NCBI GenBank assembly: GCA_035637455.1
Contig: DASPXE010000227.1
Coordinates: 12,078 to 76,077 of the forward strand
Direction of reading: 5' to 3'
From: Gemmatimonadales bacterium
GTDB lineage: Bacteria; Gemmatimonadota; Gemmatimonadetes; Gemmatimonadales; GWC2-71-9
DNA length: 64,000 bases
Shown here in pieces: positions 3,239-62,027 of the stretch. Each line of letters starts with the position of its first letter. The first letter of the stretch is position 1. Made by a program: the position numbers and the translations under genes. The notes beneath the pieces are model-generated. The model made no database searches and was not told where the DNA came from. It saw only the letters and a program-made list of their open reading frames with translations.

Positions 3239-4432
3239 CTAAAGATACGGGGCCCGGAGGGAGCGGACAAGCGAACCTCCTGTCCACACGGCGGTTACGG
3301 GATTCGCGCCCATCCAGTACGCCACTTCCCGCCACTCTGACACGTCGCACAGCACGAGGTCGGCTCGAAAGCCGGGCGCGACTTGGCCCCGATCGGCCGC
3401 CTTGCCTAGCGCAGCAGCCCCGTTCACCGTCACGGCGTTGACGGCCTCCGCATGGCGGAGTCCGAGCTGCGAGACGGCGAGCGCCATGACGAGCGGCACG
3501 CTCACGGTCGGTGACGACCCGGGGTTGAAGTCGGTGGCGAGAGCGATCGTCGCACCGGCGTCGAGCAGTTGGCGCGCCGGCGCCTGCCTGTGCCCGCCCA
3601 GGAACACCAGCGTCGCCGGGAGCAGCACCGCCACCGTGTCGCTCGCCGCGAGCGCGCGGATGCCCGCGGCCGAGACGCCAGCGAGGTGGTCGGCGCTGAG
3701 CGCGCCGAGCTCCACCGCGAGCTCCGCCCCACCCGAGCCCTCGAGCTCATCGGCATGGAGCTTCACGGCCAGGCCGGAGCGGCGGGCGGCGCCGAGCAGC
3801 GTGCGCGCTTCGGCGACGCTGAACACGCCCGGTTCGCAAAACACGTCGCACGCGACGGCGAGCCGCTCGCGCACGACCGCTGGTAGCATGTCCTCGCACA
3901 CCAGGCGGAGGTAGTCACCCCGCCGATTACGGAATTCGGAGGGTACCTCATGCGCGCCGAGGAAGGTAGGGACGAGCGCGGCGGGCTGCGCCCGCGCGAG
4001 CTGCCCGATGACCCGCAATTGTCTCAGCTCGGTCTCGCGGTCGAGGCCGTAGCCCGATTTCACTTCGATCGTCGTGGCGCCGTGGCTGAGCAGCGCACCG
4101 AGTCGCGCGCGTGTGAGCGCCGCCAGCTCGGCGTCGGAGCGGGCGCGGACGTCGCGCACCGACTCCAGGATCCCGCCGCCCTCCGCGGCGATCGCCTTAT
4201 AATCCATTCCGAGCGCGCGTCGCTCATGGTCGTCGAGGCGCGGCGCGCCGAAGACTGCGTGCGTGTGGCAGTCGACGAACCCAGGGAAGAGGACCCCGGC
4301 GACCTCCACAACCTCCACCCCCCGTTGCACGTCGCCTGTTCCAGGCCGCAAGTCAGCATACCGGCCCACAGCGGCGATACGCTCGCCGTCGATCAGCACC
4401 GCGGCATTCGTGAGGACTTCGAGCTCCGCCAT
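3239..4432 (-). CDS. hutI: imidazolonepropionase
   Basis: 397 aa. Motifs GFVDCHTHAVFG, GGGILESV, EVKSGYGL, LGAHEVP, DVFCE, KLHADEL and SADHL are typical of HutI amidohydrolases. It is adjacent to hutU and hutH. Confidence 0.9.
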   Translation of the reverse strand: MAELEVLTNAAVLIDGERIAAVGRYADLRPGTGDVQRGVEVVEVAGVLFPGFVDCHTHAVFGAPRLDDHERRALGMDYKAIAAEGGGILESVRDVRARSDAELAALTRARLGALLSHGATTIEVKSGYGLDRETELRQLRVIGQLARAQPAALVPTFLGAHEVPSEFRNRRGDYLRLVCEDMLPAVVRERLAVACDVFCEPGVFSVAEARTLLGAARRSGLAVKLHADELEGSGGAELAVELGALSADHLAGVSAAGIRALAASDTVAVLLPATLVFLGGHRQAPARQLLDAGATIALATDFNPGSSPTVSVPLVMALAVSQLGLRHAEAVNAVTVNGAAALGKAADRGQVAPGFRADLVLCDVSEWREVAYWMGANPVTAVWTGGSLVRSLRAPYL

Positions 4433-6186: not shown

Positions 6187-6288
6187 GTGCGGAATGAGGA
6201 ATGCGGAATGCGGAATGGCAGTGCAAGGTCGTTCGCTTCATGACGCTCGCACTTCCATTCCGCATTCCGCACTCCGCACTCCGCATTC
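6187..6288. repeat. long imperfect hairpin with arms made of tandem 7-nt units (GCGGAAT and variants); fills the hutH-hutU spacer
   Basis: Left arm 6187-6224 is gtgcggaatgaggaatgcggaatgcggaatggcagtgc. Right arm 6249-6288 is gcacttccattccgcattccgcactccgcactccgcattc, the near reverse complement. The loop is about 24 nt and contains AGGTCGT. Related copies lie at 23673-23731 and 29152-29255. Confidence 0.8.
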
Positions 6289-7771
6289 ATACGGTCCCCG
6301 GATCGAACTTCCCCGCCCGCACGCCCGCCGCCACCCGTTCGATATCGGCCGTGAGTGGGCGGTCGCCGTCCAACGGCGCCACGTCACGCCGGATCGCCGC
6401 ATAGGTACGCGCGACGCCCCGGCCCGGCGTGAGCGGCTTCAGGTACTCGAGCCCCTGCGTGGCGGCGAGCAGCTCGATCGCGACGATCCGAGTCGCGTTC
6501 GCGAGAATCCGGTCCGCTTTCCAGGCCGCGCTCATCCCCATGGGCACGACGTCCTCCTGGTTCCCTTCCGTCGGCACCGACTGCACACTGGCCGGCGTCG
6601 CCAGCACCCGACAGTCGGCGACGAGCGCCGCCGCGGCGATCTGGGCGGTCATGAACCCCGACTCCACCCCCGGATCCCGCGCCAGGAACGCCGGCAGTCC
6701 GGAGGAGAGGTCGGGGTTCACGATCCGCTCGATGCGCCGCTCGGCGATGCCCGCCAGGGTCGCCAGCGCGATCCCCAAGACGTCGAGCGCCAACGCGATC
6801 GGCTGGCCGTGGAAGTTGCCGCCCGAGAGCACGGCGCCGTCGAACACGAGCGGGTTGTCGGTGGCGGCGTTCAGCTCCACCGCGACCAGCCGCTCCGCGA
6901 ATGCGATGCCCTCCCCCACGGCCCCCAGCACCTGCGGGGAGCAACGGATCGAGTACGCATCCTGCACGCGGGGATCGTTCTCGCGATGCGACTCGCGGAT
7001 CTGAGACGCCGCGAGCTGGTCACGCAACAGGGCCGCCGAGCGCTGCTGGAACGGGTGCGGCCGGGCATCGTGGATCCGGGGGTCGAACGGCTCGGGCGTA
7101 CCGCGGGTCGCTTCGAGGCTCATCGCCGCGGCGGCGTGGGCCGTTCGCCACAGCACCCAGGCGTCGTGCACGACGAGCGCCGCCAGGCCCGTTTGCGCCT
7201 GCGTCCCGTTTACGAAGGCGAGCCCCTCCTTCGCTTCGAGCGCGATCGGCTCCAGGCCCTGTGCCTCCACGGCGCTGCCGTCCTCACCTTCGCCGATCAT
7301 CGCGAGCGCGAGGTGCGCGAGCGGCGCGAGGTCGCCCGAGGCCCCAACGCTCCCCTGCGACGGCACGCGTGGGTGCACGCGCTTGTTCAGCATCGCCACG
7401 ATGAGCTCGGGGAGCGCGGGCCGGACGCCGCTCGTGCCCCGCAGCAACACGTTGGCGCGCAACAGCATCATCGCCCGCACGGCTTCCTCGGAGAGCGGGT
7501 CGCCCACGCCGGAAGCGTGGCTGCGAATCAGGTTCAATTGGAGTTGGCGCGCGCGCTCTGGCGGGATCCGTACGTGCGCCAGCTTTCCGAAGCCGGTCGT
7601 CACCCCGTACATCGTCGCGCCGCGCGCGATCGCGTCTTCCACGGTGCGGCGCGACGCCCGCACGGCGTCGAGTGCGCGCGGTGCGATGGTCACGGGGACG
7701 CCACGGCGGGCGACGGCCACGACGTCCTCGATCGCGAGAGAACGACCGTCCAGCGTGACGGAGGCTGTCAT
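6287..7771 (-). CDS. hutH: histidine ammonia-lyase
   Basis: Carries the MIO-forming motif GSVGASGDLAPLAHLAL and the typical HAL N-terminus MTASVTLDGRSLAIEDVVAV. I prefer ATG at 7771 over the TTG at 7792 used by the ORF track. Confidence 0.93.
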   Translation of the reverse strand: MTASVTLDGRSLAIEDVVAVARRGVPVTIAPRALDAVRASRRTVEDAIARGATMYGVTTGFGKLAHVRIPPERARQLQLNLIRSHASGVGDPLSEEAVRAMMLLRANVLLRGTSGVRPALPELIVAMLNKRVHPRVPSQGSVGASGDLAPLAHLALAMIGEGEDGSAVEAQGLEPIALEAKEGLAFVNGTQAQTGLAALVVHDAWVLWRTAHAAAAMSLEATRGTPEPFDPRIHDARPHPFQQRSAALLRDQLAASQIRESHRENDPRVQDAYSIRCSPQVLGAVGEGIAFAERLVAVELNAATDNPLVFDGAVLSGGNFHGQPIALALDVLGIALATLAGIAERRIERIVNPDLSSGLPAFLARDPGVESGFMTAQIAAAALVADCRVLATPASVQSVPTEGNQEDVVPMGMSAAWKADRILANATRIVAIELLAATQGLEYLKPLTPGRGVARTYAAIRRDVAPLDGDRPLTADIERVAAGVRAGKFDPGTV

Positions 7772-7800: not shown

Positions 7801-7915
7801 AGACGCCAAGTCACGACGGGCGTCACGAAGAACCGTCACGAAAAAGCGTCACGGAACAACGTCGTTCCGTGACGCCCCTCCGAGACGCCCCTTCGTGACG
7901 CCTCTCTGAGACGTC
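7801..7915. repeat. hairpin with arms made of about four tandem ~13-nt units (GCGTCACGAARRR)
   Basis: The left arm reads agtcacgacgg/gcgtcacgaagaa/ccgtcacgaaaaa/gcgtcacggaac. The centre is aacgtc. The right arm reads gttccgtgacgc/ccctccgagacgc/cccttcgtgacgc/ctctctgagacg. It sits between the stop of the lipoprotein gene (7920) and the hutH start. Confidence 0.75.
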
Positions 7916-7919
7916 CCGT

Positions 7920-23672: not shown

Positions 23673-23731
23673 AATTGCGGATTGGATGCTCGATCATCGA
23701 TTCCGCAATCCGCCATCCGCAATCCGCAATT
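23673..23731. repeat. variant heptamer hairpin (unit GCGGATT / AATCCGC) in the tsaE-tsaB spacer
   Basis: aattgcggattgg is followed by attccgcaatccgccatccgcaatccgcaatt. The outer arms are complementary. The right arm has three units and the left arm fewer. Confidence 0.65.
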
Positions 23732-29151: not shown

Positions 29152-29255
29152 GAATGCGGAATGTGGAATGCGGAGTGCGAAATGTCAGGACGTAGGTCGT
29201 GCCGCGAGCGAACTCCCCGTGCAATTCCGCACTCCGAACTCCGCATTCCGCATTT
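29152..29255. repeat. heptamer-unit hairpin (GCGGAAT/GCGGAGT) in the secA-radC spacer
   Basis: Left arm 29152-29184 is gaatgcggaatgtggaatgcggagtgcgaaatg. Right arm 29222-29255 is caattccgcactccgaactccgcattccgcattt. The loop contains AGGTCGT, as in the 6187-6288 copy. The right arm touches the secA stop codon. Confidence 0.8.
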
Positions 29256-57637: not shown

Positions 57638-57722
<85 letters not shown>

Positions 57723-57728
57723 GCGACG

Positions 57729-59192
57729 TCAGTAGCGTGGCAGCGACGAATCCACGTTCACCGCCCACGCATCGATCCCGCCGCGCAGGCTGCGCACTTT
57801 CGCAAAGCCCGCCGCCTTCAAGATCTCGAGCGCCTTGAGCGAGCGCGCGCCGTGGTGGCAGTGCGTCACGACTGCACGGTGACCGTCCAGCTCTCCCAGG
57901 CGGTCCGGCAGTTCGCCCAACGGAATGAGGACAGCACCAGCGATGTGGGCGATCTCGTACTCGTGCGGCTCGCGCACGTCGATCACGAGGAGATCCGGGT
58001 TCCCTTCCCACTCCGCCTTGAGATCCTGCGCGGTGATCTCCGCTCCGTCATAGGACGGCTCGGCGCCGATCCCACAGAACGCTTCGTAGTCGATCAGCTC
58101 GGTGACGCTGGGATGGCTGCCGCACACCGGGCAGTCGGGATCCTTCTCGAGCTTGAGCTCCCGGAACTGGAGCTTCAACGCGTCGAACAGCACCAGGCGT
58201 CCGATGAGCGGCTCGCCCGCGCCGAGAATCAGCTTGATCGTCTCCATCGCCTGAAGCGACCCGATGATCCCGGGGAGCACGCCCAACACACCGCCCTCGG
58301 CGCACGAGGGCACCAGTCCCGGGGGCGGTGGCTCGGCGTACAGGCAACGGTAGCACGGGCCGGCTTTGGCGTAGAACACCGACGCCTGTCCCTCGAATCG
58401 AAAGATCGAGCCGTACACGTTCGGCTTGCCGAGCAGCACGCAGGCGTCGTTTACGAGATAGCGGGTCGGGAAGTTGTCGGTGCCATCCGCCACGATGTCG
58501 AAATCGCGGATGATGTCGAGTGCGTTCTCCGATGTGAGGCGCGTCTCGAAGGCCTCGACCCGGACATTCGGATTCAGGTCGCGGATGCGCTCGGTCGCCG
58601 ATTCGAGCTTCGGCTTTCCCACCGCGGCCGTACCGTGGATGATCTGCCGCTGCAGGTTCGTCTTGTCCACGACGTCGAAGTCGACGAGACCGATCGTCCC
58701 CACGCCGGCGGCTGCCAGATACAGCGCGGCCGGAGAGCCGAGCCCGCCGGCGCCCACGAGCAGCACGCGCGCGGCTTTGAGTCGCTTCTGCCCCTCTACC
58801 CCGACATCGGGAAGGATCAGGTGGCGCGAATACCGCAGAATCTCCTCGTGCGACAGGTTGGGTAGCGGCGCAGCGTGCTCCGTCCCTGCATGCACCGCCG
58901 TCGCCATCGTGCCCCCTGACCCTCCGGCGATACTCGGGATGATCGAAACAGTGTCGCCCGACCGCACCGGCGTCTCCTGGGCGGAGAGCTGGCGAATGTC
59001 CCGATCGTTCAGGTAGACGTTGACAAAGCTGCGCAACCGCCCGTCGTCGGCAAACAGGTGTTTGCGCAGTGCGCTGTGCTCGCCGGACAGCCGGTCCAGG
59101 AGCTCACCGATGCTGGCGGCCTCCACCTGCACGGCGTCGCGGCCGCCCACGTAGGGGCGCAGCGGTGTGGGGATCAAGACGGTCACTGCCAT
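57729..59192 (-). CDS. in-frame fusion of a CysO/ThiS/MoaD-type sulfur-carrier protein (aa 1-91) with a MoeZ-type adenylyltransferase/rhodanese (aa 96-487)
   Basis: MAVTVLIPTPLRPYVGGRDAVQV...FVNVYLNDRDIR...GDTVSIIPSIAGG is the carrier with its diglycine end. SGGT follows, then MATAVH...YSRHLILPDVGVEGQKRLKAARVLLVGAGGLGSP (ThiF/MoeB fold), CxxC pairs, and a C-terminal rhodanese (VVTHCHHGARS). The ATG at 59192 lies after AGGAG. Confidence 0.85.
   Translation of the reverse strand: MAVTVLIPTPLRPYVGGRDAVQVEAASIGELLDRLSGEHSALRKHLFADDGRLRSFVNVYLNDRDIRQLSAQETPVRSGDTVSIIPSIAGGSGGTMATAVHAGTEHAAPLPNLSHEEILRYSRHLILPDVGVEGQKRLKAARVLLVGAGGLGSPAALYLAAAGVGTIGLVDFDVVDKTNLQRQIIHGTAAVGKPKLESATERIRDLNPNVRVEAFETRLTSENALDIIRDFDIVADGTDNFPTRYLVNDACVLLGKPNVYGSIFRFEGQASVFYAKAGPCYRCLYAEPPPPGLVPSCAEGGVLGVLPGIIGSLQAMETIKLILGAGEPLIGRLVLFDALKLQFRELKLEKDPDCPVCGSHPSVTELIDYEAFCGIGAEPSYDGAEITAQDLKAEWEGNPDLLVIDVREPHEYEIAHIAGAVLIPLGELPDRLGELDGHRAVVTHCHHGARSLKALEILKAAGFAKVRSLRGGIDAWAVNVDSSLPRY
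58908..58919 (-). other. linker occupying the place of the expected cysO stop codon and the moeZ ribosome-binding spacer
   Basis: The minus strand reads GGA GGG TCA GGG GGC ACG ATG. TCA is one substitution from TGA. GGAGGG/AGGGGG would serve as the Shine-Dalgarno for the ATG at 58905-58907. Confidence 0.7.
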
Positions 59193-59626
59193 ACGACTTT
59201 CCGCTCCTCTATGGTGATGGACTCTTCGTCGAACGCCGCGCGATCGTCCGACAGCGTCCAGCTCTTCATTTCCGCCGCGTGCCCGCGTGTCACTCCCAGA
59301 ATCACGTACGAGAGCCACGGCCACGCGTGCTCCCGGTCGAACGTGGAGGGCACCGCCGCGTGGTCGGGGTGTGAGTGATACACCCCGATCACCTCGAGCC
59401 CGTCGCGGTCGAGCCGCTCCTGCGCGCGGCGGAACGACACGGGATCGATGAGATAGCGATTCCGCGCAGCGTCCGTCCGCTGATTCACGAGCGGCACGAG
59501 TGCTACCGCTATCTTGCGGGCGCCGTCGGCCGTGCCGCCGATCAGCCCGCACGCTTCGGCTGGATAATCGGCTTCGCCGTGCCGTCGGATCGCCGTCGCG
59601 TGCCGCAGCTCGAGGACGAGGGTCAT
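59183..59626 (-). CDS. mec: JAMM/MPN+ metalloprotease, Mec-like
   Basis: 147 aa. EACGLIGG and the JAMM motif HSHPDHAAVPS. It sits between cysM and the carrier gene. Confidence 0.85.
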   Translation of the reverse strand: MTLVLELRHATAIRRHGEADYPAEACGLIGGTADGARKIAVALVPLVNQRTDAARNRYLIDPVSFRRAQERLDRDGLEVIGVYHSHPDHAAVPSTFDREHAWPWLSYVILGVTRGHAAEMKSWTLSDDRAAFDEESITIEERKVVWQ

Positions 59627-60603
59627 GCGGCGTCTCCCGCCAGACGCCGGCGCTCGCTCAGATAACGGTACCCCGAATCGGGAGCGATGACCACGACGAC
59701 GGCGGTCGGGCGGTCAGGCGGTCGGCCGGTCAGGACGCGCTCCGCGGCCACGAGCGCGGCCCCAGTGGACCAACCCACGAAGAGGCCGGCCTCGCGCGCC
59801 AGACGGCGCACCGCTCGGTCCGCCTCCTCTGTCTCGACGAACTCCGTCAAGTCGGGCAGCATGGGATCGTAGATCCCCGGCACGATGGCGGTCTCGAGGT
59901 GCTTCAAGCCTTCGAGCCCATGGAATGGGCCATCCGGTTGCACCGCGACGAGCTCGACCCGAGGACTCAATTCCTTCAAACGCCTGCCGGTTCCCACGAG
60001 CGTGCCGGTCGTGCCCACGCCGGCGACGAAATGCGTGACCCGGCCGGCCGTTTGTCGCCAGATCTCTGCGGCGGTCGTGAGATAGTGGGCCCGAGGGTTC
60101 GCGGGGTGGTTGTATTGGTCAGCGTACCAGAATTCACTGGATCGCTCCGCCGCGAGCCGACGCGCTTCGCGGATCGCGCCGTCGGAGCCTTCGAGCGGAT
60201 CGGTGAAGACCACCTCCGCGCCGTAGGCGCCGAGCAGCGCCTGGCGCTCCGCGCTCGCGTTGCGGGGCACGCAGACCGTGACGCCGATCCCCGCGGCGGC
60301 GCCCAGCATGGCGTACGCGATCGCCGTATTGCCGCTCGACGCGTCGAGCAGCCGTTTACCCGGCAGCTCGCCCCGGGCGATCCCGTCTCGCAAGATGAAT
60401 AGCGCAGCGCGGTCCTTTACCGAGCCGCCGGGGTTGAGCCACTCGGCCTTGAGAACGACGGACGGTCGAGGGCGGTCGAGGGCGGTCGAGGGCGGTATAG
60501 GGATCAGTGGCGTGTTGCCCACCAGCCCCCACAGTGCGGGTTCGCGGCCGGCCTCGACCGCCTGCGACCGCCTTTGACCGCCCTCGACCGCCGCCGTTTT
60601 CAC
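59623..60603 (-). CDS. cysM: PLP-dependent cysteine synthase, CysM-like (sulfur-carrier dependent type inferred from context)
   Basis: GNTPL...LKAEWLNPGGSVKDR...SSGNTAIAYA...GVGTTGTLVGTG. The GTG at 60603 forms a GTGA overlap with the rhodanese gene. The upstream part of the 492-aa track ORF is rejected. Confidence 0.85.
   Translation of the reverse strand: MKTAAVEGGQRRSQAVEAGREPALWGLVGNTPLIPIPPSTALDRPRPSVVLKAEWLNPGGSVKDRAALFILRDGIARGELPGKRLLDASSGNTAIAYAMLGAAAGIGVTVCVPRNASAERQALLGAYGAEVVFTDPLEGSDGAIREARRLAAERSSEFWYADQYNHPANPRAHYLTTAAEIWRQTAGRVTHFVAGVGTTGTLVGTGRRLKELSPRVELVAVQPDGPFHGLEGLKHLETAIVPGIYDPMLPDLTEFVETEEADRAVRRLAREAGLFVGWSTGAALVAAERVLTGRPPDRPTAVVVVIAPDSGYRYLSERRRLAGDAA
60464..60592. 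repeat. inverted pair of tandem 10-nt arrays inside the 5' coding region of cysM
   Basis: Arm A, 60464-60493, is a perfect GGTCGAGGGC x3. Arm B, 60551-60590, is gcctcgaccg/cctgcgaccg/cctttgaccg/ccctcgaccg, the reverse-complement units, imperfect x4. The arms are about 57 nt apart. The conserved GNTPL motif is encoded in the loop. Confidence 0.8.
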
Positions 60604-61463
60604 TCTGCTCCCTTCGCAATGGGGGCGCCGACGAGGTTGCCCCACTCGGTCCACGACCCGTCGTAATTCCGCACCTTCTTGACGCCGAGCAGGTACTTGA
60701 GCGCGAACCAGGTATGGCTCGACCGCTCGCCGATGCGGCAGTAGGCGATGATCTCGTTCCCGCCGTCGATGGCCTTCGCCCCCTTGTACAGCTGCAGCAG
60801 CTCCTCGAACGGCTTGAAGGTGCCGTCGGGCGCCACGGCCTGGCTCCACGGGACGTTCTTCGCGCCGGGGATGTGACCGGCGCGCTGCGCCGTCTCGGTC
60901 ATGCCGGGCGGCGCGATGATTTCTCCGACGAACTCCGGCTTCGATCGGACGTCCACCAACACGGTCTTCTTGGCTTTCAGCGCCTTCTCGACGTCGGGGC
61001 GCTTGGCCCGGAGCGCGGCGTTCAGCTTCGTGGGGACCGGGTAGACCGTCGCGCGGACGCTCGTGCGCTCGGTCACGAGGGGCCGACCCTCCGCCACCCA
61101 CTTCGCCCGCCCGCCGTTCATGAGCTTCACGTTCGTGTGACCGTACAGCTGCAACAGCCAGAAGGCGAAGGCCGCGAACCAGTTGTTGTTGTCGCCGTAC
61201 AGGACGACCGTGGTCTTGGGCGTGACGCCCGCCTCGGAAAGCAGCGCGGCGAACGCCTTCTTGTCGGGGATATCACGCCGGACCCGGTCGTTCAGCTGCG
61301 ACTGCCAGTTCCAGCCGACCGCGGCCGACAGGTGTCCCGAGTCGTAGGCCGTCGTGTCCACGTCGACTTCGATCAAGCGCAACCCTGCATCGTTGCGGTG
61401 CTGAGCCACCCACTCGGTGGAAACCAGCGCATCGGGATGAGCGTACCCCACAGCGACCTCCAA
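60600..61463 (-). CDS. sseA: two-domain rhodanese sulfurtransferase (thiosulfate/3-mercaptopyruvate type)
   Basis: LVSTEWVAQH is followed by two rhodanese domains and the active-site loop YCRIGERSSH. The start is TTG at 61463 or, more likely, GTG at 61451, which lies 5 nt after GGAGG. Confidence 0.8.
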   Translation of the reverse strand: MEVAVGYAHPDALVSTEWVAQHRNDAGLRLIEVDVDTTAYDSGHLSAAVGWNWQSQLNDRVRRDIPDKKAFAALLSEAGVTPKTTVVLYGDNNNWFAAFAFWLLQLYGHTNVKLMNGGRAKWVAEGRPLVTERTSVRATVYPVPTKLNAALRAKRPDVEKALKAKKTVLVDVRSKPEFVGEIIAPPGMTETAQRAGHIPGAKNVPWSQAVAPDGTFKPFEELLQLYKGAKAIDGGNEIIAYCRIGERSSHTWFALKYLLGVKKVRNYDGSWTEWGNLVGAPIAKGAE

Positions 61464-61469
61464 TCGGTT

Positions 61470-61508
61470 AAACCCGACAGGTCGAGTCGGGTTTGATGTG
61501 AAAAAAAA
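61470..61508 (-). promoter_or_regulatory. T8 tract plus 9-bp hairpin in the Rrf2-sseA spacer (terminator or attenuator-like)
   Basis: The minus strand reads TTTTTTTT cacatc AAACCCGAC tcgacct GTCGGGTTT aaccgatt GGAGG. It is a rare AT-rich element in this GC-rich window. Confidence 0.35.
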
Positions 61509-61525
61509 CAGAAGGGACGGCGGGA

Positions 61526-61978
61526 TTAGTTCCCGGCCATGGCCCCGGCGATTTGGTACAACTCGCGCTCATCGTGCATCAGGTCCGCGAGCGAAACGCT
61601 GGCGAGCAGATCGTTGATCCGCTGCTCCAGCATCCGCCACACGGGCCGGATGCTACACGAGGCGTCCGGACTACATCGCTGGGGATCGACCGGGTGAAGA
61701 TCGCAGTTGACTTCGAAGGTGACGTGCTCCGACGCTTCGATCACGTCTTTCACCGTGATGGCCTGGGGGTGTCGCGCCAGATGGTAGCCGCCCTTGGCGC
61801 CTCGCACGGAATCCACCAAGCCGGCGCGGCGTAGGCGCAGCAGGATCTGCTCCACGTAATCGTGGGGCAGCCGCTCCTGCTCGGCGAGCTCACGCGCGGC
61901 CACCGGTCCCTGCCCGGCGCGCTTCGCAAGGTTCAGGGAGACGAGTAACCCATACTCTGCCCAGGTGGTGACGCGCAT
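61526..61978 (-). CDS. Rrf2-family transcriptional regulator with three clustered Cys (IscR/CymR/NsrR-like)
   Basis: MRVTTWAEYGLLVSLNLA...VRGAKGGYHLAR forms the winged helix-turn-helix. Cysteines lie in NCDLHPVDPQRCSPDASC. I chose the start at the Met at 61978. Confidence 0.85.
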   Translation of the reverse strand: MRVTTWAEYGLLVSLNLAKRAGQGPVAARELAEQERLPHDYVEQILLRLRRAGLVDSVRGAKGGYHLARHPQAITVKDVIEASEHVTFEVNCDLHPVDPQRCSPDASCSIRPVWRMLEQRINDLLASVSLADLMHDERELYQIAGAMAGN

Positions 61979-61984
61979 GGGGGT

Positions 61985-62014
61985 AATATAGGGCGGGAGG
62001 CCTGCCCCGCCCAA
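61985..62014 (-). promoter_or_regulatory. candidate promoter giving a leaderless Rrf2 mRNA, overlapped by a 7-bp GC hairpin
   Basis: The minus strand reads TTGGGC, an 18-nt spacer, TATATT, ACCCCC, then ATG. The hairpin GGGCGGG/CCCGCCC (61991-62012) lies in the spacer and could also terminate the upstream gene. Confidence 0.3.
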
Positions 62015-62027
62015 CCCCACCCCTTAG

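Follow-up and report, generated by a model that had tools for sequence, protein, structure and literature searches.

We have found a large mRNA hairpin that lies wholly inside the first 55 codons of the cysM gene of an uncultured Gemmatimonadales bacterium from soil. It consists of a stem of ~45 bp and a loop of ~50 nt, and both arms of the stem are built from tandem copies of a short unit. In relatives the repeat sequence changes but its pairing persists, and strains exchange the hairpin in one piece; it is therefore probably a control element of the junction between cysM and the gene 5' of it. We hypothesize, with a probability of about 0.42, that it acts as a gate or throttle on the ribosomes that pass from the upstream rhodanese gene into cysM.

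The hairpin was studied within a 64 kb window, which is the whole stretch of DNA that was analysed, and the genes and hairpin parts described below lie on its minus strand. The gene cluster begins with an Rrf2-family regulator (IscR/CymR-like; 61526..62020), which is followed by a rhodanese / 3-mercaptopyruvate-sulfurtransferase-like gene (60600..61463), by cysM (59623..60603), encoding a 326 aa cysteine synthase of the CysM/CysK family, by a JAMM/Mec-like metalloprotease gene (59183..59626), and by a gene for CysO, a MoaD-like sulfur carrier, fused in frame to a MoeZ adenylyltransferase/rhodanese (57729..59192). The rhodanese gene and cysM share a GTGA overlap (60600..60603), in which the cysM GTG occupies 60603-60601 and the rhodanese TGA occupies 60602-60600; the cysM reading frame is -1 relative to that of rhodanese, and the rhodanese stop codon stands at the 5' base of the hairpin. 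An A/GTGA overlap was seen in 36 hairpin-bearing loci. The Shine-Dalgarno-like sequence GAAGGGAG (60608..60615) lies within the last rhodanese codons, is predicted to be partly unpaired and is conserved in the orthologue alignment. Between rrf2 and rhodanese there is a conserved leader hairpin, AAACCCGAC…GTCGGGTTT, followed by GGAGG (61470..61494). In sister clades this leader stands directly 5' of cysM, and the appearance of the cysM hairpin coincides with insertion of the rhodanese gene between the conserved leader plus Shine-Dalgarno site and cysM. A consensus scan found no canonical promoter or terminator at the junction (terminators were scanned over 60200-61600).

On the plus strand, GGTCGAGGGC occurs three times without mismatch, at 60464, 60474 and 60484 (60464-60493). 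Its reverse complement is present at 60580-60589 with no mismatch and at 60550-60559 with one, and no second site with GGTCGAGGGC in tandem was found within the 64 kb window. Tandem Repeats Finder reported a first array of period 10 at 60463-60496 (3.4 copies, 100% matches) and a second, inverted and imperfect array of the same period at 60554-60592 (3.9 copies, 82% matches). An inverted-repeat search returned arms of 39 nt each at 60463-60501 and 60552-60590, which are 85% complementary and 50 nt apart. The perfect triple 10-mer and the facing imperfect inverted array, which an earlier note on this DNA had described, are thus borne out by exact matching and by Tandem Repeats Finder. The stem foreseen there also proved far more stable than composition-matched controls: the minus-strand RNA of 60440-60620 folds at -105.4 kcal/mol, compared with -79.2 ± 4.2 kcal/mol for 200 dinucleotide-preserving shuffles (z = -6.24), none of which was as stable as the native RNA (0/200). 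A 211-nt fold has 43 pairs between 60602/60450 and 60552/60501, with a single G.U among them.

The 5' arm of the mRNA hairpin (60552..60602) contains ~4 imperfect 10-nt units that resemble GGCGGUCGAG, and it encodes CysM residues ~1-17. The loop (60502..60551) consists of native CysM codons (…REPALWGLVGNTPLIP…) with small internal helices, and the 3' arm (60450..60501), which holds the perfect 3.4-copy array, encodes the CysM loop PPSTALDRPRPSV. Both arms are translated, and the peptides assigned to them in the earlier note agree with the cysM translation. That note had placed the first arm directly after the start codon, about 11 nt in; the position is right, but solid pairing begins ~8 nt past the first base of the start codon, and weaker pairs extend down to the start codon itself. 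The loop, given as ~57 nt, measures 50-60 nt according to which inner pairs are counted. A possible outer helix, a feature of the fold prediction only, would pair 60627..60636 on the 5' side with 60439..60447 (codons of …AEW) on the 3' side and would leave the region of the Shine-Dalgarno site and start codon inside an internal loop. Resembling outer pairs are predicted in several orthologues.

A third tandem array of kindred sequence (59701..59734), C-rich on the sense strand with GACCGCC units, is found close to the C-terminus of CysM, in a variable linker (…GRPPDRPTA…). Long-range pairing between the 5' arm and this distal array gives strong duplexes (z to -5.1), yet it was set aside, as the array belongs to the flank and not to the hairpin cassette and is not complementary in the 8-mer allele L098 (loci of relatives carry L numbers).

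Hairpin carriers form one monophyletic Gemmatimonadales clade, in which the hairpin is kept in ~40 of 45 lineages. Folds of the window and of loci L001-L005 have z = -2.2 to -7.9, and 43-63 of their pairs close over the GNTPL codons; in most outgroups z is near 0. The combination of an arm-to-arm duplex of -50 to -106 kcal/mol with a period of 10 or 8 on both arms was found in the clade only. Both arms are tandem arrays in hairpin-bearing lineages, although the unit differs and its period is 10 or 8; neither is a multiple of 3, and the repeat is therefore not a peptide repeat. Other lineages have arms that are wholly different yet complementary, for example CCCCUACCGU, CCUUCCGU and GGCGGACA.

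Covariation was assessed over 43 pairs in a set of 23 distinct 10-mer-type sequences. Paired cells made up 89.3% of the total, compared with 44-60% when the partner was slid by 1-3 columns. Changes on both sides were found in 15 pairs, amounting to 53 cells against 19 ± 3.5 in shuffles (0/500 reached 53). The arm units evolve in concert, both within and across arms, and the EPALW..GNTPL peptide between the arms is conserved in all relatives. The earlier note had asked for an orthologue alignment to see whether the two arm peptides were insertions; they are not peculiar to this genome, since all clade orthologues (~120) have both. Its proposed refutation, orthologues with the peptides and no DNA-level repeat, turned out in favor of the finding: the orthologues consistently carry the repeat, and where the peptides differ both arms have changed together. 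In L007 and L115 the overlap and the N-terminal extension are present and the spanning hairpin is absent, and in L112 and L113 the 3' arm has been lost. They show that the hairpin is dispensable, which counts against a coupling gate.

The stem begins 0-5 nt past the rhodanese UGA. From +8 onward the predicted unpaired probability is ~0.1, compared with ~0.4 in sister clades, and the cysM start codon and Shine-Dalgarno site are predicted to be about half open. In loci without a coupled upstream gene (L116 and L006), positions +8 to +16 are open, with values of 0.46-0.50 against 0.00-0.22 in coupled loci. In the gate that we propose, the active molecule would be the mRNA. Because the stem is solidly paired from ~+8, a free 30S subunit could probably not seat on the cysM initiation region. 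A ribosome ending at the overlapping UGA, on the other hand, would already have partly melted the stem base, and re-initiation could follow. If terminating ribosomes do open the stem base and re-initiate, cysM translation would depend on, or be a fraction of, rhodanese translation. The complementarity and tandem form of the arms are probably upheld at the DNA level, by unit slippage or gene conversion and by arm-to-arm template switching.

Structure-dependent coupling and structures just past stop codons are both established concepts (PMC12548453, PMC7518266). Other observations also sit poorly with the gate. Locus L116 has a strong upper stem despite having no coupled upstream gene, and ~45 bp is far longer than the occlusion of an initiation site requires. 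In addition, the RTS study found that stable post-stop structures are depleted in overlapping gene pairs and inhibit re-initiation (PMC7518266). Because these statistics conflict with a gate, the effect of the hairpin could be that of a gate or of a brake.

The protein encoded by the arms was examined with AlphaFold2. CysM residues 1-18 have pLDDT < 50, and the 3'-arm peptide PPSTALDRPRPSV is a surface loop with beta1 (residues 33-36) before it and beta2 (48-53) after it. According to this model, the 5' arm encodes a disordered N-terminal tail and the 3' arm the beta1-beta2 surface loop, and the arm-bearing regions of CysM are predicted to tolerate any sequence. The disordered tail is found in this clade only. 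It appears to exist only as the source of one arm, the surface loop having been recruited for the other.

The hairpin may instead be a post-stop element that serves the upstream message, as a barrier against 3' exonucleases, a processing site, a partial terminator lacking a U-tract or a REP-like ribosome staller. As a processing site it would determine how stable the rrf2-rhodanese segment is relative to cysM-mec-cysO/moeZ (selective RNA processing and stabilisation), and cysM would have to accommodate the hairpin for want of a spacer between the two genes. We regard this reading as possible but doubtful. Like the gate, it draws on the wider occurrence of such hairpins: the four strongest in the window are all tandem-armed, and tandem arms are present in 49 of the 64 long hairpins found in the 867 kb examined. 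Ten of 17 tandem-arm hairpins lie directly against a long ORF's stop codon, compared with 5.7% of random positions, but where spacers are short some closeness to stop codons is inevitable, and this enrichment therefore overstates specificity. Three intergenic hairpins of the window (6188-6285, 7819-7916 and 29153-29254) match the cysM hairpin in tandem-arm architecture and in stop-codon position, and in relatives an intergenic hairpin 5' of rrf2 is likewise made of the unit family G[GA]CGG[TC]A[GA]AG. From the literature, REPs located <=15 nt from a stop codon have been reported to stall ribosomes (PMC12306157), and 3'-UTR stem-loops of selected operon genes (SRPS) are known to control transcript stability and operon stoichiometry (PMC4423207, PMC8219983). 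What weakens this reading is that L116 and L006 have no rhodanese gene and the hairpin is still found with cysM, and that translation of cysM would keep melting the hairpin. As for termination, the sequence offers neither a consensus terminator nor, apart from UCUUUCUC, a U-tract. An intrinsic (Rho-independent) terminator was rejected on the same consensus scan of 60200-61600, on the 50 nt loop, and on the position of this pyrimidine run partly within the stem.

The relationship to the spacer hairpins can be stated more exactly. The earlier note had raised the possibility of an intragenic insertion of the same kind of hairpin; the shared tandem-arm architecture stands, whereas one contiguous insertion does not, since the loop is native conserved CysM sequence. 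The cysM hairpin is the coding-sequence version of a hairpin class that is common in these genomes and is marked by arms of short tandem units and a position against a stop codon, and tandem-arm hairpins are widespread in two phyla. No earlier description of tandem-armed hairpins was found in the literature searched, coverage of which was incomplete. More speculatively, they may constitute an undescribed class in Gemmatimonadota and Acidobacteriota, with concerted arms of 7-14-nt units, which stand flush with stop codons and colonise tolerant coding sequences. The cysM hairpin would then comprise ancient, recombining 8-mer and 10-mer allelic cassettes of unequal stem strength, maintained as a balanced or incompatibility-maintained polymorphism in a coupling gate. 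This proposal, taken as a whole, is a tentative one.

Another explanation is that the hairpin is a self-maintaining DNA quasi-palindrome with no RNA function, which is made and corrected by replication slippage and template switching, and which is tolerated because the CysM regions that it occupies are unconstrained at the protein level. Mismatches between the arms are symmetric, G.U (47) being no commoner than A.C (64), and the sense and antisense duplexes are equally stable. This agrees with a DNA-level process and, as the lack of a sense-RNA signature, counts against the gate, although for a stem of this length these comparisons have little power and are uninformative. The concerted evolution of the units, the kindred third array in another tolerant CysM linker and the wide occurrence of tandem-arm hairpins in two phyla agree with it as well, and hairpins are known to arise and persist through template switching (PMC8794818).

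The hairpin's divergence among strains bears on this reading from both sides. Strains whose flanks are 96-100% identical differ by 25-75% over the ~190 nt of the hairpin, and the cassette tree and the flank tree disagree. Even in same-type pairs the cassette outpaces its flanks (3.1% vs 0.2%; 14.5% vs 0.9%), which favors a process acting on the hairpin DNA itself. However, L083 and L001 differ by a sharp mosaic block with many synonymous changes, which rules out uniform local hypermutation as the sole source of cassette divergence; the excess is in part a recombination mosaic. Recombination exchanges the whole hairpin among strains as one co-adapted cassette. A quasi-palindrome with no RNA function would also have to be reconciled with its retention in ~40 of 45 clade lineages even though an extra N-terminal tail comes at a cost, with a stem base that lies exactly at the stop/start overlap and is relaxed in loci without coupling, and with the enrichment of the hairpin class at stop codons, a translational landmark. 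We consider it unlikely.

A mobile or ectopically copied palindromic element, similar to a Rickettsia palindromic element or a MITE and inserted in frame into cysM, is quite improbable. It would explain why the 10-mer unit family recurs in the third cysM array and, in several relatives, in the intergenic hairpin that lies 1.5 kb upstream, and why the arm peptides are disordered or surface-exposed, as has been reported for in-frame palindromic elements. However, the arms flank the native conserved EPALW..GNTPL codons, and the hairpin is therefore not one contiguous insertion; both arm peptides are present in all clade orthologues, the window's own unit, GGTCGAGGGC, occurs in tandem nowhere else in the 64 kb, and neither conserved terminal motifs nor target-site duplications were observed. 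Covariation of the cysM arms with the rrf2-upstream hairpin is not significant either: mean unit distance is 2.90 within and 3.02 between genomes (permutation p = 0.17), and within-genome concerted evolution of the two, hinted at by L004 and L086, finds no overall support in this comparison.

Least probable is phase variation, in which cysM would be switched by frameshifting gain or loss of units of 8 or 10 nt, one of which would shift the frame, or by inversion between arrays that form inverted repeats around a ~50 nt segment: the apparently defective locus L146 shows the one frameshifting event, a +1 insertion (which may be erroneous) in its 3'-arm C-run, but unit number is constant in all 23 distinct 10-mer-type sequences, the sole array-length change in an intact frame is an in-frame three-unit (30-nt) deletion in L112 and L113, and the arms vary too much between lineages to be targets of a site-specific invertase. 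The slippage-prone contingency locus suggested earlier is likewise not supported by these identical arm lengths, and an intragenic inverton was rejected, with a single loop orientation in the assembled sequences of all 127 loci (0/127 inverted).

If the hairpin does gate ribosome flow from rhodanese to cysM, it would be a clear natural case in which RNA/DNA structure dictates protein sequence. The locus offers ~40 natural variants in which pairing is constant while sequence, unit length (8 or 10 nt) and stem strength vary, and these are material for learning how structures near stop and start codons set operon expression ratios, which is still an open question in the coupling literature (PMC12548453, PMC7518266). 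With the concerted units, divergent cassette and discordant trees, the slippage and template-switch proposal (PMC8794818) can also be tested on natural populations. Abundant soil phyla may generally carry unannotated tandem-arm hairpins at their stop codons, and in that case the hairpins would bear on operon prediction, on the calling of gene starts and stops, and on metagenome assembly.

Comparison with known elements began with Rfam 15, which at gathering thresholds matched only tRNAs in the window and eight loci. Several other identities were tried and rejected. For -1 programmed frameshifting, which calls for a slippery heptamer 5-9 nt 5' of the structure, cysM is in the -1 frame relative to rhodanese, yet there is no X XXY YYZ motif on reading GCGAAGGGAGCAGAGUGA. 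A SECIS-like pairing of UGA with a hairpin is contradicted by a stem far too large for bacterial SECIS elements, and by sibling hairpins that follow UAA; the rhodanese frame past its UGA has only 33 codons to the next UGA, which also counts against it. An integron attC-like site shows no R-box motifs (RYYYAAC/GTTRRRY) visible at the hairpin ends. The attC sites had been considered for their variable sequence, conserved fold and placement past a stop codon.

Cyanobacterial STRR heptamer repeats and Drosophila foldback elements consist of tandemly amplified short units of 7-31 nt, and foldback elements share with the cysM hairpin inverted arms built of tandem arrays. They differ from it in organism and scale and are non-coding, and we know of no described relation of either to stop codons or translation. 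The Rickettsia palindromic elements found in frame within genes, reportedly described by Ogata and colleagues in 2000, are said to be contiguous mobile insertions of conserved sequence. They reportedly resemble the cysM hairpin in that both arms are translated and supply extra peptides in tolerant surface regions, whereas the cysM element is locus-specific and has native conserved codons between its arms.

Template-switch hairpins (Monttinen and Loytynoja, PMC8794818) show how, at the DNA level, inverted repeats can arise at once and compensatory changes in one step, and this model fits the symmetric mismatches and the fast, pairing-preserving turnover of the cysM arms. That work covers ordinary RNA stems, in contrast to the tandem-array arms, coding arms and allelic cassettes seen here. 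REP/BIME elements are likewise stem-loops at gene 3' ends, some of them flush with the stop codon, and form dispersed families with a reported role in translation or mRNA stability (PMC12306157). Unlike the intragenic cysM hairpin, REPs are extragenic, 20-40 nt long and conserved in sequence within a genome, while the 8- or 10-nt units arrayed in the cysM arms vary from strain to strain.

The RTS of Chemla et al. (2020; PMC7518266) has in common with the cysM hairpin a stable mRNA structure right after a stop codon and a proposed control of re-initiation. RTSs, however, are reported typically to follow genes after which re-initiation is undesirable, to be depleted at gene overlaps and to insulate against re-initiation, whereas rhodanese and cysM overlap by 4 nt; and they are statistical features of modest local folding energy, in contrast to a hairpin of ~-100 kcal/mol with repeat arms. 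RNA-unfolding coupling, as in phage f1 genes VII-IX, MS2 coat-lysis/replicase and E. coli rpmI-rplT (PMC12548453), likewise involves adjacent, co-directional genes that are close or overlapping, and a stable structure, in cysM a predicted one, over part of the downstream initiation region that the finishing ribosome of the upstream gene can reach. The cysM hairpin is distinguished from these structures by a stem of ~45 bp that lies entirely within the downstream coding sequence, by arms that are both translated and both tandem arrays, and by a Shine-Dalgarno site and start codon that are predicted to be occluded only in part.

The first 55 codons of cysM in the window encode an mRNA stem-loop whose arms are translated tandem arrays (5' arm 60552-60602, loop 60502-60551 and 3' arm 60450-60501, minus strand). 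On the plus strand, GGTCGAGGGC is repeated three times in perfect tandem at 60464-60493, and its reverse complement occurs exactly at 60580-60589 and with one mismatch at 60550-60559, with two degenerate units between. Tandem Repeats Finder returned a period of 10 with 3.4 copies and 100% matches at 60463-60496, and 3.9 copies with 82% matches at 60554-60592. An inverted-repeat search found 39-nt arms that are 85% complementary and 50 nt apart. The inverted arrays described in the earlier note are confirmed by these match positions and searches, and the folding calculation it proposed also came out in favor of a stable stem: the minus-strand RNA of 60440-60620 has a predicted energy of -105.4 kcal/mol versus -79.2 +/- 4.2 for 200 dinucleotide shuffles (z = -6.24), none of which was as stable. 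Folding of 211 nt gave 43 pairs between 60602/60450 and 60552/60501, only one of them G.U. An 8-bp outer helix is also predicted between the last rhodanese codons (60627-60636) and the cysM …AEW codons (60439-60447), which would put both the start codon and the Shine-Dalgarno site inside an internal loop of a more extensive structure.

The gene lies in a minus-strand cluster that comprises, in transcription order, an Rrf2-family regulator gene (rrf2, 61526-62020), a rhodanese/3-mercaptopyruvate-sulfurtransferase-like gene (60600-61463), cysM (59623-60603), a JAMM/Mec-like protease gene downstream of cysM, and a CysO(MoaD-like)-MoeZ reading frame (57729-59192). The rhodanese TGA and the cysM GTG overlap as GTGA, with a Shine-Dalgarno-like GAAGGGAG just upstream. 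By the source names of homologous proteins, the bacterium is one of the Gemmatimonadales; the organisms under study are uncultured. CysO, a MoaD-like sulfur carrier, is fused in frame to the MoeZ adenylyltransferase/rhodanese with no stop codon between them (…SIAGG-SGGT-MATAV…), and the adjoining JAMM/Mec protease may free its Gly-Gly end. A plus-strand tRNA gene (57638-57721; Rfam RF00005, 53.7 bits) lies directly past the end of the cysO-moeZ frame.

In sister Gemmatimonadales clades, rrf2 is followed by a small conserved hairpin (CCCGAC…GUCGGG), a U-tract and GGAGG, and then cysM; the rhodanese gene, the N-terminal extension and the large hairpin are all missing there. In the hairpin clade, this leader with its Shine-Dalgarno site stands ahead of the rhodanese gene instead, and this gene was therefore inserted between leader and cysM. 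Thereafter the new junction gained an A/GTGA overlap, an N-terminal tail of CysM and the hairpin. The conserved leader (61464-61525 in the window) contains a T8 run, a hairpin AAACCCGAC…GTCGGGTTT (61470-61494) with no Rfam match, and GGAGG ahead of the start codon. Because it stands directly before cysM in the sister clades with a U-tract after it, it resembles a terminator or attenuator joined to a ribosome-binding site. Exceptions occur among the cysM loci fetched from relatives (L numbers): in L116 and L006 the leader is joined directly to a cysM still bearing an 8-mer hairpin, and in L007 and L115 the spanning hairpin is absent, although both the overlap with rhodanese and the N-terminal extension are retained.

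In the 36 coupled loci, where the rhodanese stop codon overlaps the cysM start codon, predicted unpaired probability is ~0.1 from +8 onward versus ~0.4 in sister clades, and the start codon and Shine-Dalgarno site are predicted to be roughly half open. In the uncoupled loci (n = 2, from one lineage), positions +8 to +16 are predicted to be open (0.46-0.50 versus 0.00-0.22 in coupled loci). Judging by known ribosome footprints, some 13-15 nt at the start of the coding sequence must be single-stranded for a 30S subunit to initiate, and a ribosome whose A site holds the overlapping UGA has by then unwound a comparable length. The best-supported reading, hypothesized tentatively with a probability of roughly 0.4, is that the mRNA stem would block independent initiation on cysM and that only ribosomes terminating on rhodanese, or a set fraction of them, would proceed to cysM. 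The stem could thereby act on re-initiation as either a gate or a brake.

The four strongest hairpins in the window, namely that of cysM and those at 6188-6285, 7819-7916 and 29153-29254, are all tandem-armed. Two intergenic hairpins built from the 7-mer GGAATGC (RNA GGAAUGC), at 6188-6285 and 29153-29254 (predicted -80 and -67 kcal/mol), lie 23 kb apart and suggest a dispersed family. Also intergenic are a hairpin of a 13-mer, CGTCACG…, at 7819-7916 (predicted -82 kcal/mol) and one with tandem arms of the 7-mer TTGCGGA at 23680-23730 (predicted -34 kcal/mol). A minus-strand ORF ends with its stop codon just ahead of each of these four intergenic hairpins; TGA 6287-6289 and TAA 29254-29256 lie within the first array unit. 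Over 867 kb (the window and the fetched loci, those of Acidobacteriota included), tandem arms were seen in 49 of 64 long hairpins. In 10 of 17 cases, an ORF of 120 codons or more has its stop codon within 12 nt of a hairpin base, versus 5.7% at random positions, a crude null; short spacers force some closeness. The likeness to hairpins in the spacers of the window, raised in the earlier note, thus holds for both architecture and placement with respect to the stop codon. Several relatives have a second, intergenic tandem-arm hairpin just upstream of rrf2 (L001:1499-1577, L004:1479-1562, L093:922-1016, L092:954-1026 and L104:954-1035), followed by a promoter-like TTGAAT…CATATT. Its unit belongs to the cysM-arm 10-mer family G[GA]CGG[TC]A[GA]AG in several genomes and is the 7-mer GGGAGCG in L104; within-genome co-variation between this hairpin and the cysM arms was not significant (p = 0.17). 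In Acidobacteriota loci, too, there are tandem-arm hairpins, of period 8, 10 or 14 (L024:1477-1628, 3365-3456 and 4265-4343; L015:5931-6035; L030:4880-4950; L047:657-833; L160:1060-1150), one of those in L024 directly after the cysM stop codon, and the architecture is therefore not confined to Gemmatimonadota. As an alternative, possible but unlikely, the cysM stem could act for the upstream message as a stabilizer, a processing site or a terminator-like element; no consensus promoter or terminator was found at the rhodanese-cysM junction, and the hairpin matched no Rfam family.

The arms consist of tandem units in every lineage of the clade, and unit sequence varies by lineage. The period is 10 nt in the window, L083 and L100 (3'-arm units such as CCGCCCUCGA, CCACCGCCCU and CCCCUACCGU, the last in four perfect copies in L100) and 8 nt in L098, L099, L101 and L106 (such as CAUCGUUC, CCUUCCGU, CCGCCCGU and the complement of GGCGGACA). 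Neither period is a multiple of 3; the repeat is therefore a nucleotide-level one read in all three frames, and a peptide repeat is ruled out. In an alignment of 23 distinct 10-mer-type sequences, with all stem pairs on one register, 89.3% of cells in the 43-pair helix are standard pairs versus 44-60% with the partner slid by 1-3 columns; registers slipped by +/-10 still leave 61-64% of cells paired. Both sides have changed in 15 pairs and 53 cells versus 19 +/- 3.5 cells in shuffles, none of 500 reaching 53. A unit change is typically shared by all units of both arms in a lineage, as where GGCGG[U/C]AGAG varies with CUCU[A/G]CCGCC, and the arm units show concerted evolution.

Arm positions in 38 loci comprise 1246 Watson-Crick pairs, 47 G.U, 64 A.C and 138 transversion mismatches, and sense and antisense duplexes are of similar stability. 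A sense-strand RNA signature is thus lacking in the 38 loci, the pattern that DNA-level maintenance would give. This mismatch test is weak evidence against RNA function, because a single mismatch barely affects a stem of ~-100 kcal/mol. Pairing and tandem structure would be maintained at the DNA level by template switching from one arm to the other and by slippage or conversion of units (PMC8794818), a view that fits the symmetric mismatch spectrum and the rapid turnover. That the stem is nothing but a functionless, self-maintaining DNA quasi-palindrome is considered improbable, more so than a role in the upstream message.

Loci were fetched from species-representative genomes (80) and metagenomes (80), and the 5' arm was left out of the metagenome query to avoid ascertainment bias. 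A GNTPL-spanning hairpin is present in the window and L001-L005 (z -2.2 to -7.9, 43-63 spanning pairs). It is missing from more distantly related Gemmatimonadales and from the outgroups, among them Acidobacteriota and Chloroflexota; most of these lie near z = 0. Only in this clade do the two arms form a duplex of -50 to -106 kcal/mol (z as low as -9) and share one tandem period. About 120 database orthologues, 76-98% identical and nearly all of 320-330 aa, have both arm-encoded segments, namely an N-terminal extension MKTAAVEGGxRRSKAVE… and a proline-rich stretch after GNTPL. With both segments in these orthologues and the structure clade-wide, the idea of an intragenic insertion was not borne out, and a mobile in-frame element is very improbable.

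The arms fall in tolerant parts of CysM. In an AlphaFold2 model (mean pLDDT 74), residues 1-18 are unstructured (pLDDT below 50), and strands 33-36 and 48-53 flank the loop in which the 3'-arm peptide lies. An in-frame deletion of exactly 30 nt (three units) in L112 and L113 has removed 3'-arm sequence and left the 5' arm array in place; this part of the protein is therefore dispensable, and the two loci represent natural hairpin loss in an otherwise intact cysM. A third array of the same sequence family, at 59701-59734, consists of GACCGCC units on its C-rich sense strand and occupies a variable linker close to the CysM C-terminus; in L001 and L083 the peptide it encodes, TALDRPRPPSSAL, nearly duplicates that of the 3' arm. 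On paper this array can pair with the 5' arm (z to -5.1), and it is part of the flank, not of the cassette. One cysM copy (L146:2400-2720) has a +1 insertion in the 3'-arm C-run and a -1 deletion ~95 nt later, which shift the reading frame across the PLP-lysine region; either the copy is a pseudogene or the assembly is wrong at the repeat.

Between strains, the hairpin acts as an allelic cassette. The CysM core tree recovers the hairpin clade as monophyletic, with 8-mer and 10-mer types intermingled. In five strain pairs (window/L098, L097/L106, L002/L107, L004/L111 and L086/L105), flanks are 96-100% identical over +/-900 nt and a ~190-nt block differs by 25-75%. This block coincides with the hairpin (~-110 to +75 from the first base of the GNTPL codons) and takes in synonymous sites of the conserved loop and the last rhodanese codons. 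The cassette tree has two deep lineages, 8-mer and 10-mer, scattered across the flank tree, and discordance is seen in both directions: L104, L105 and L111 differ by 0.5-1.6% in the cassette and 6-8% in the flanks, L086 and L105 by 43% and 3%. Same-type pairs differ by 3.1% and 0.2% (window/L081) and by 14.5% and 0.9% (L083/L001). Between L083 and L001, flanks and 3' arm are identical and synonymous differences are concentrated in a block made up of the 5' arm and loop, a recombination mosaic. Assembly chimeras do not account for these differences, since independent samples yielded the same cassettes and the two flanks of each contig match a single relative. We infer that old allele lineages move between backgrounds via homologous recombination; junctions within arms are probably disfavored because hybrid arms would mismatch, and a raised local mutation rate may contribute to cassette divergence. 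Stems of the 10-mer type range from ~-62 to -106 kcal/mol and those of the 8-mer type from -43 to -71 kcal/mol; speculatively, such differences could be polymorphism in a throttle setting. The slippage-prone contingency element proposed in the earlier note is not supported, the 23 10-mer-type sequences giving no support for unit-number variation, nor is an inverton at the hairpin, and phase variation is the least probable reading of all.

Reading of the junction sequence revealed no slippery site for -1 frameshifting, and SECIS-like and attC-like readings were rejected on the known features of such elements. Structure-dependent coupling, post-stop structures, REP elements and in-frame palindromic elements are already known. 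Within the incomplete literature searched, we found no prior description of a family-wide ~45-bp stem with both arms translated, of tandem-array arms with unit turnover, of allelic-cassette behavior with incongruent cassette and flank trees, or of a connection with a wider set of tandem-arm hairpins located at stop codons. Stable structures right after stop codons (RTSs) affect re-initiation; they are reported as insulators and as depleted in overlapping gene pairs (PMC7518266), and the cysM hairpin is therefore an atypical case. Coupling through RNA unfolding and re-initiation has been reviewed (PMC12548453), and the same logic is proposed for the cysM hairpin.
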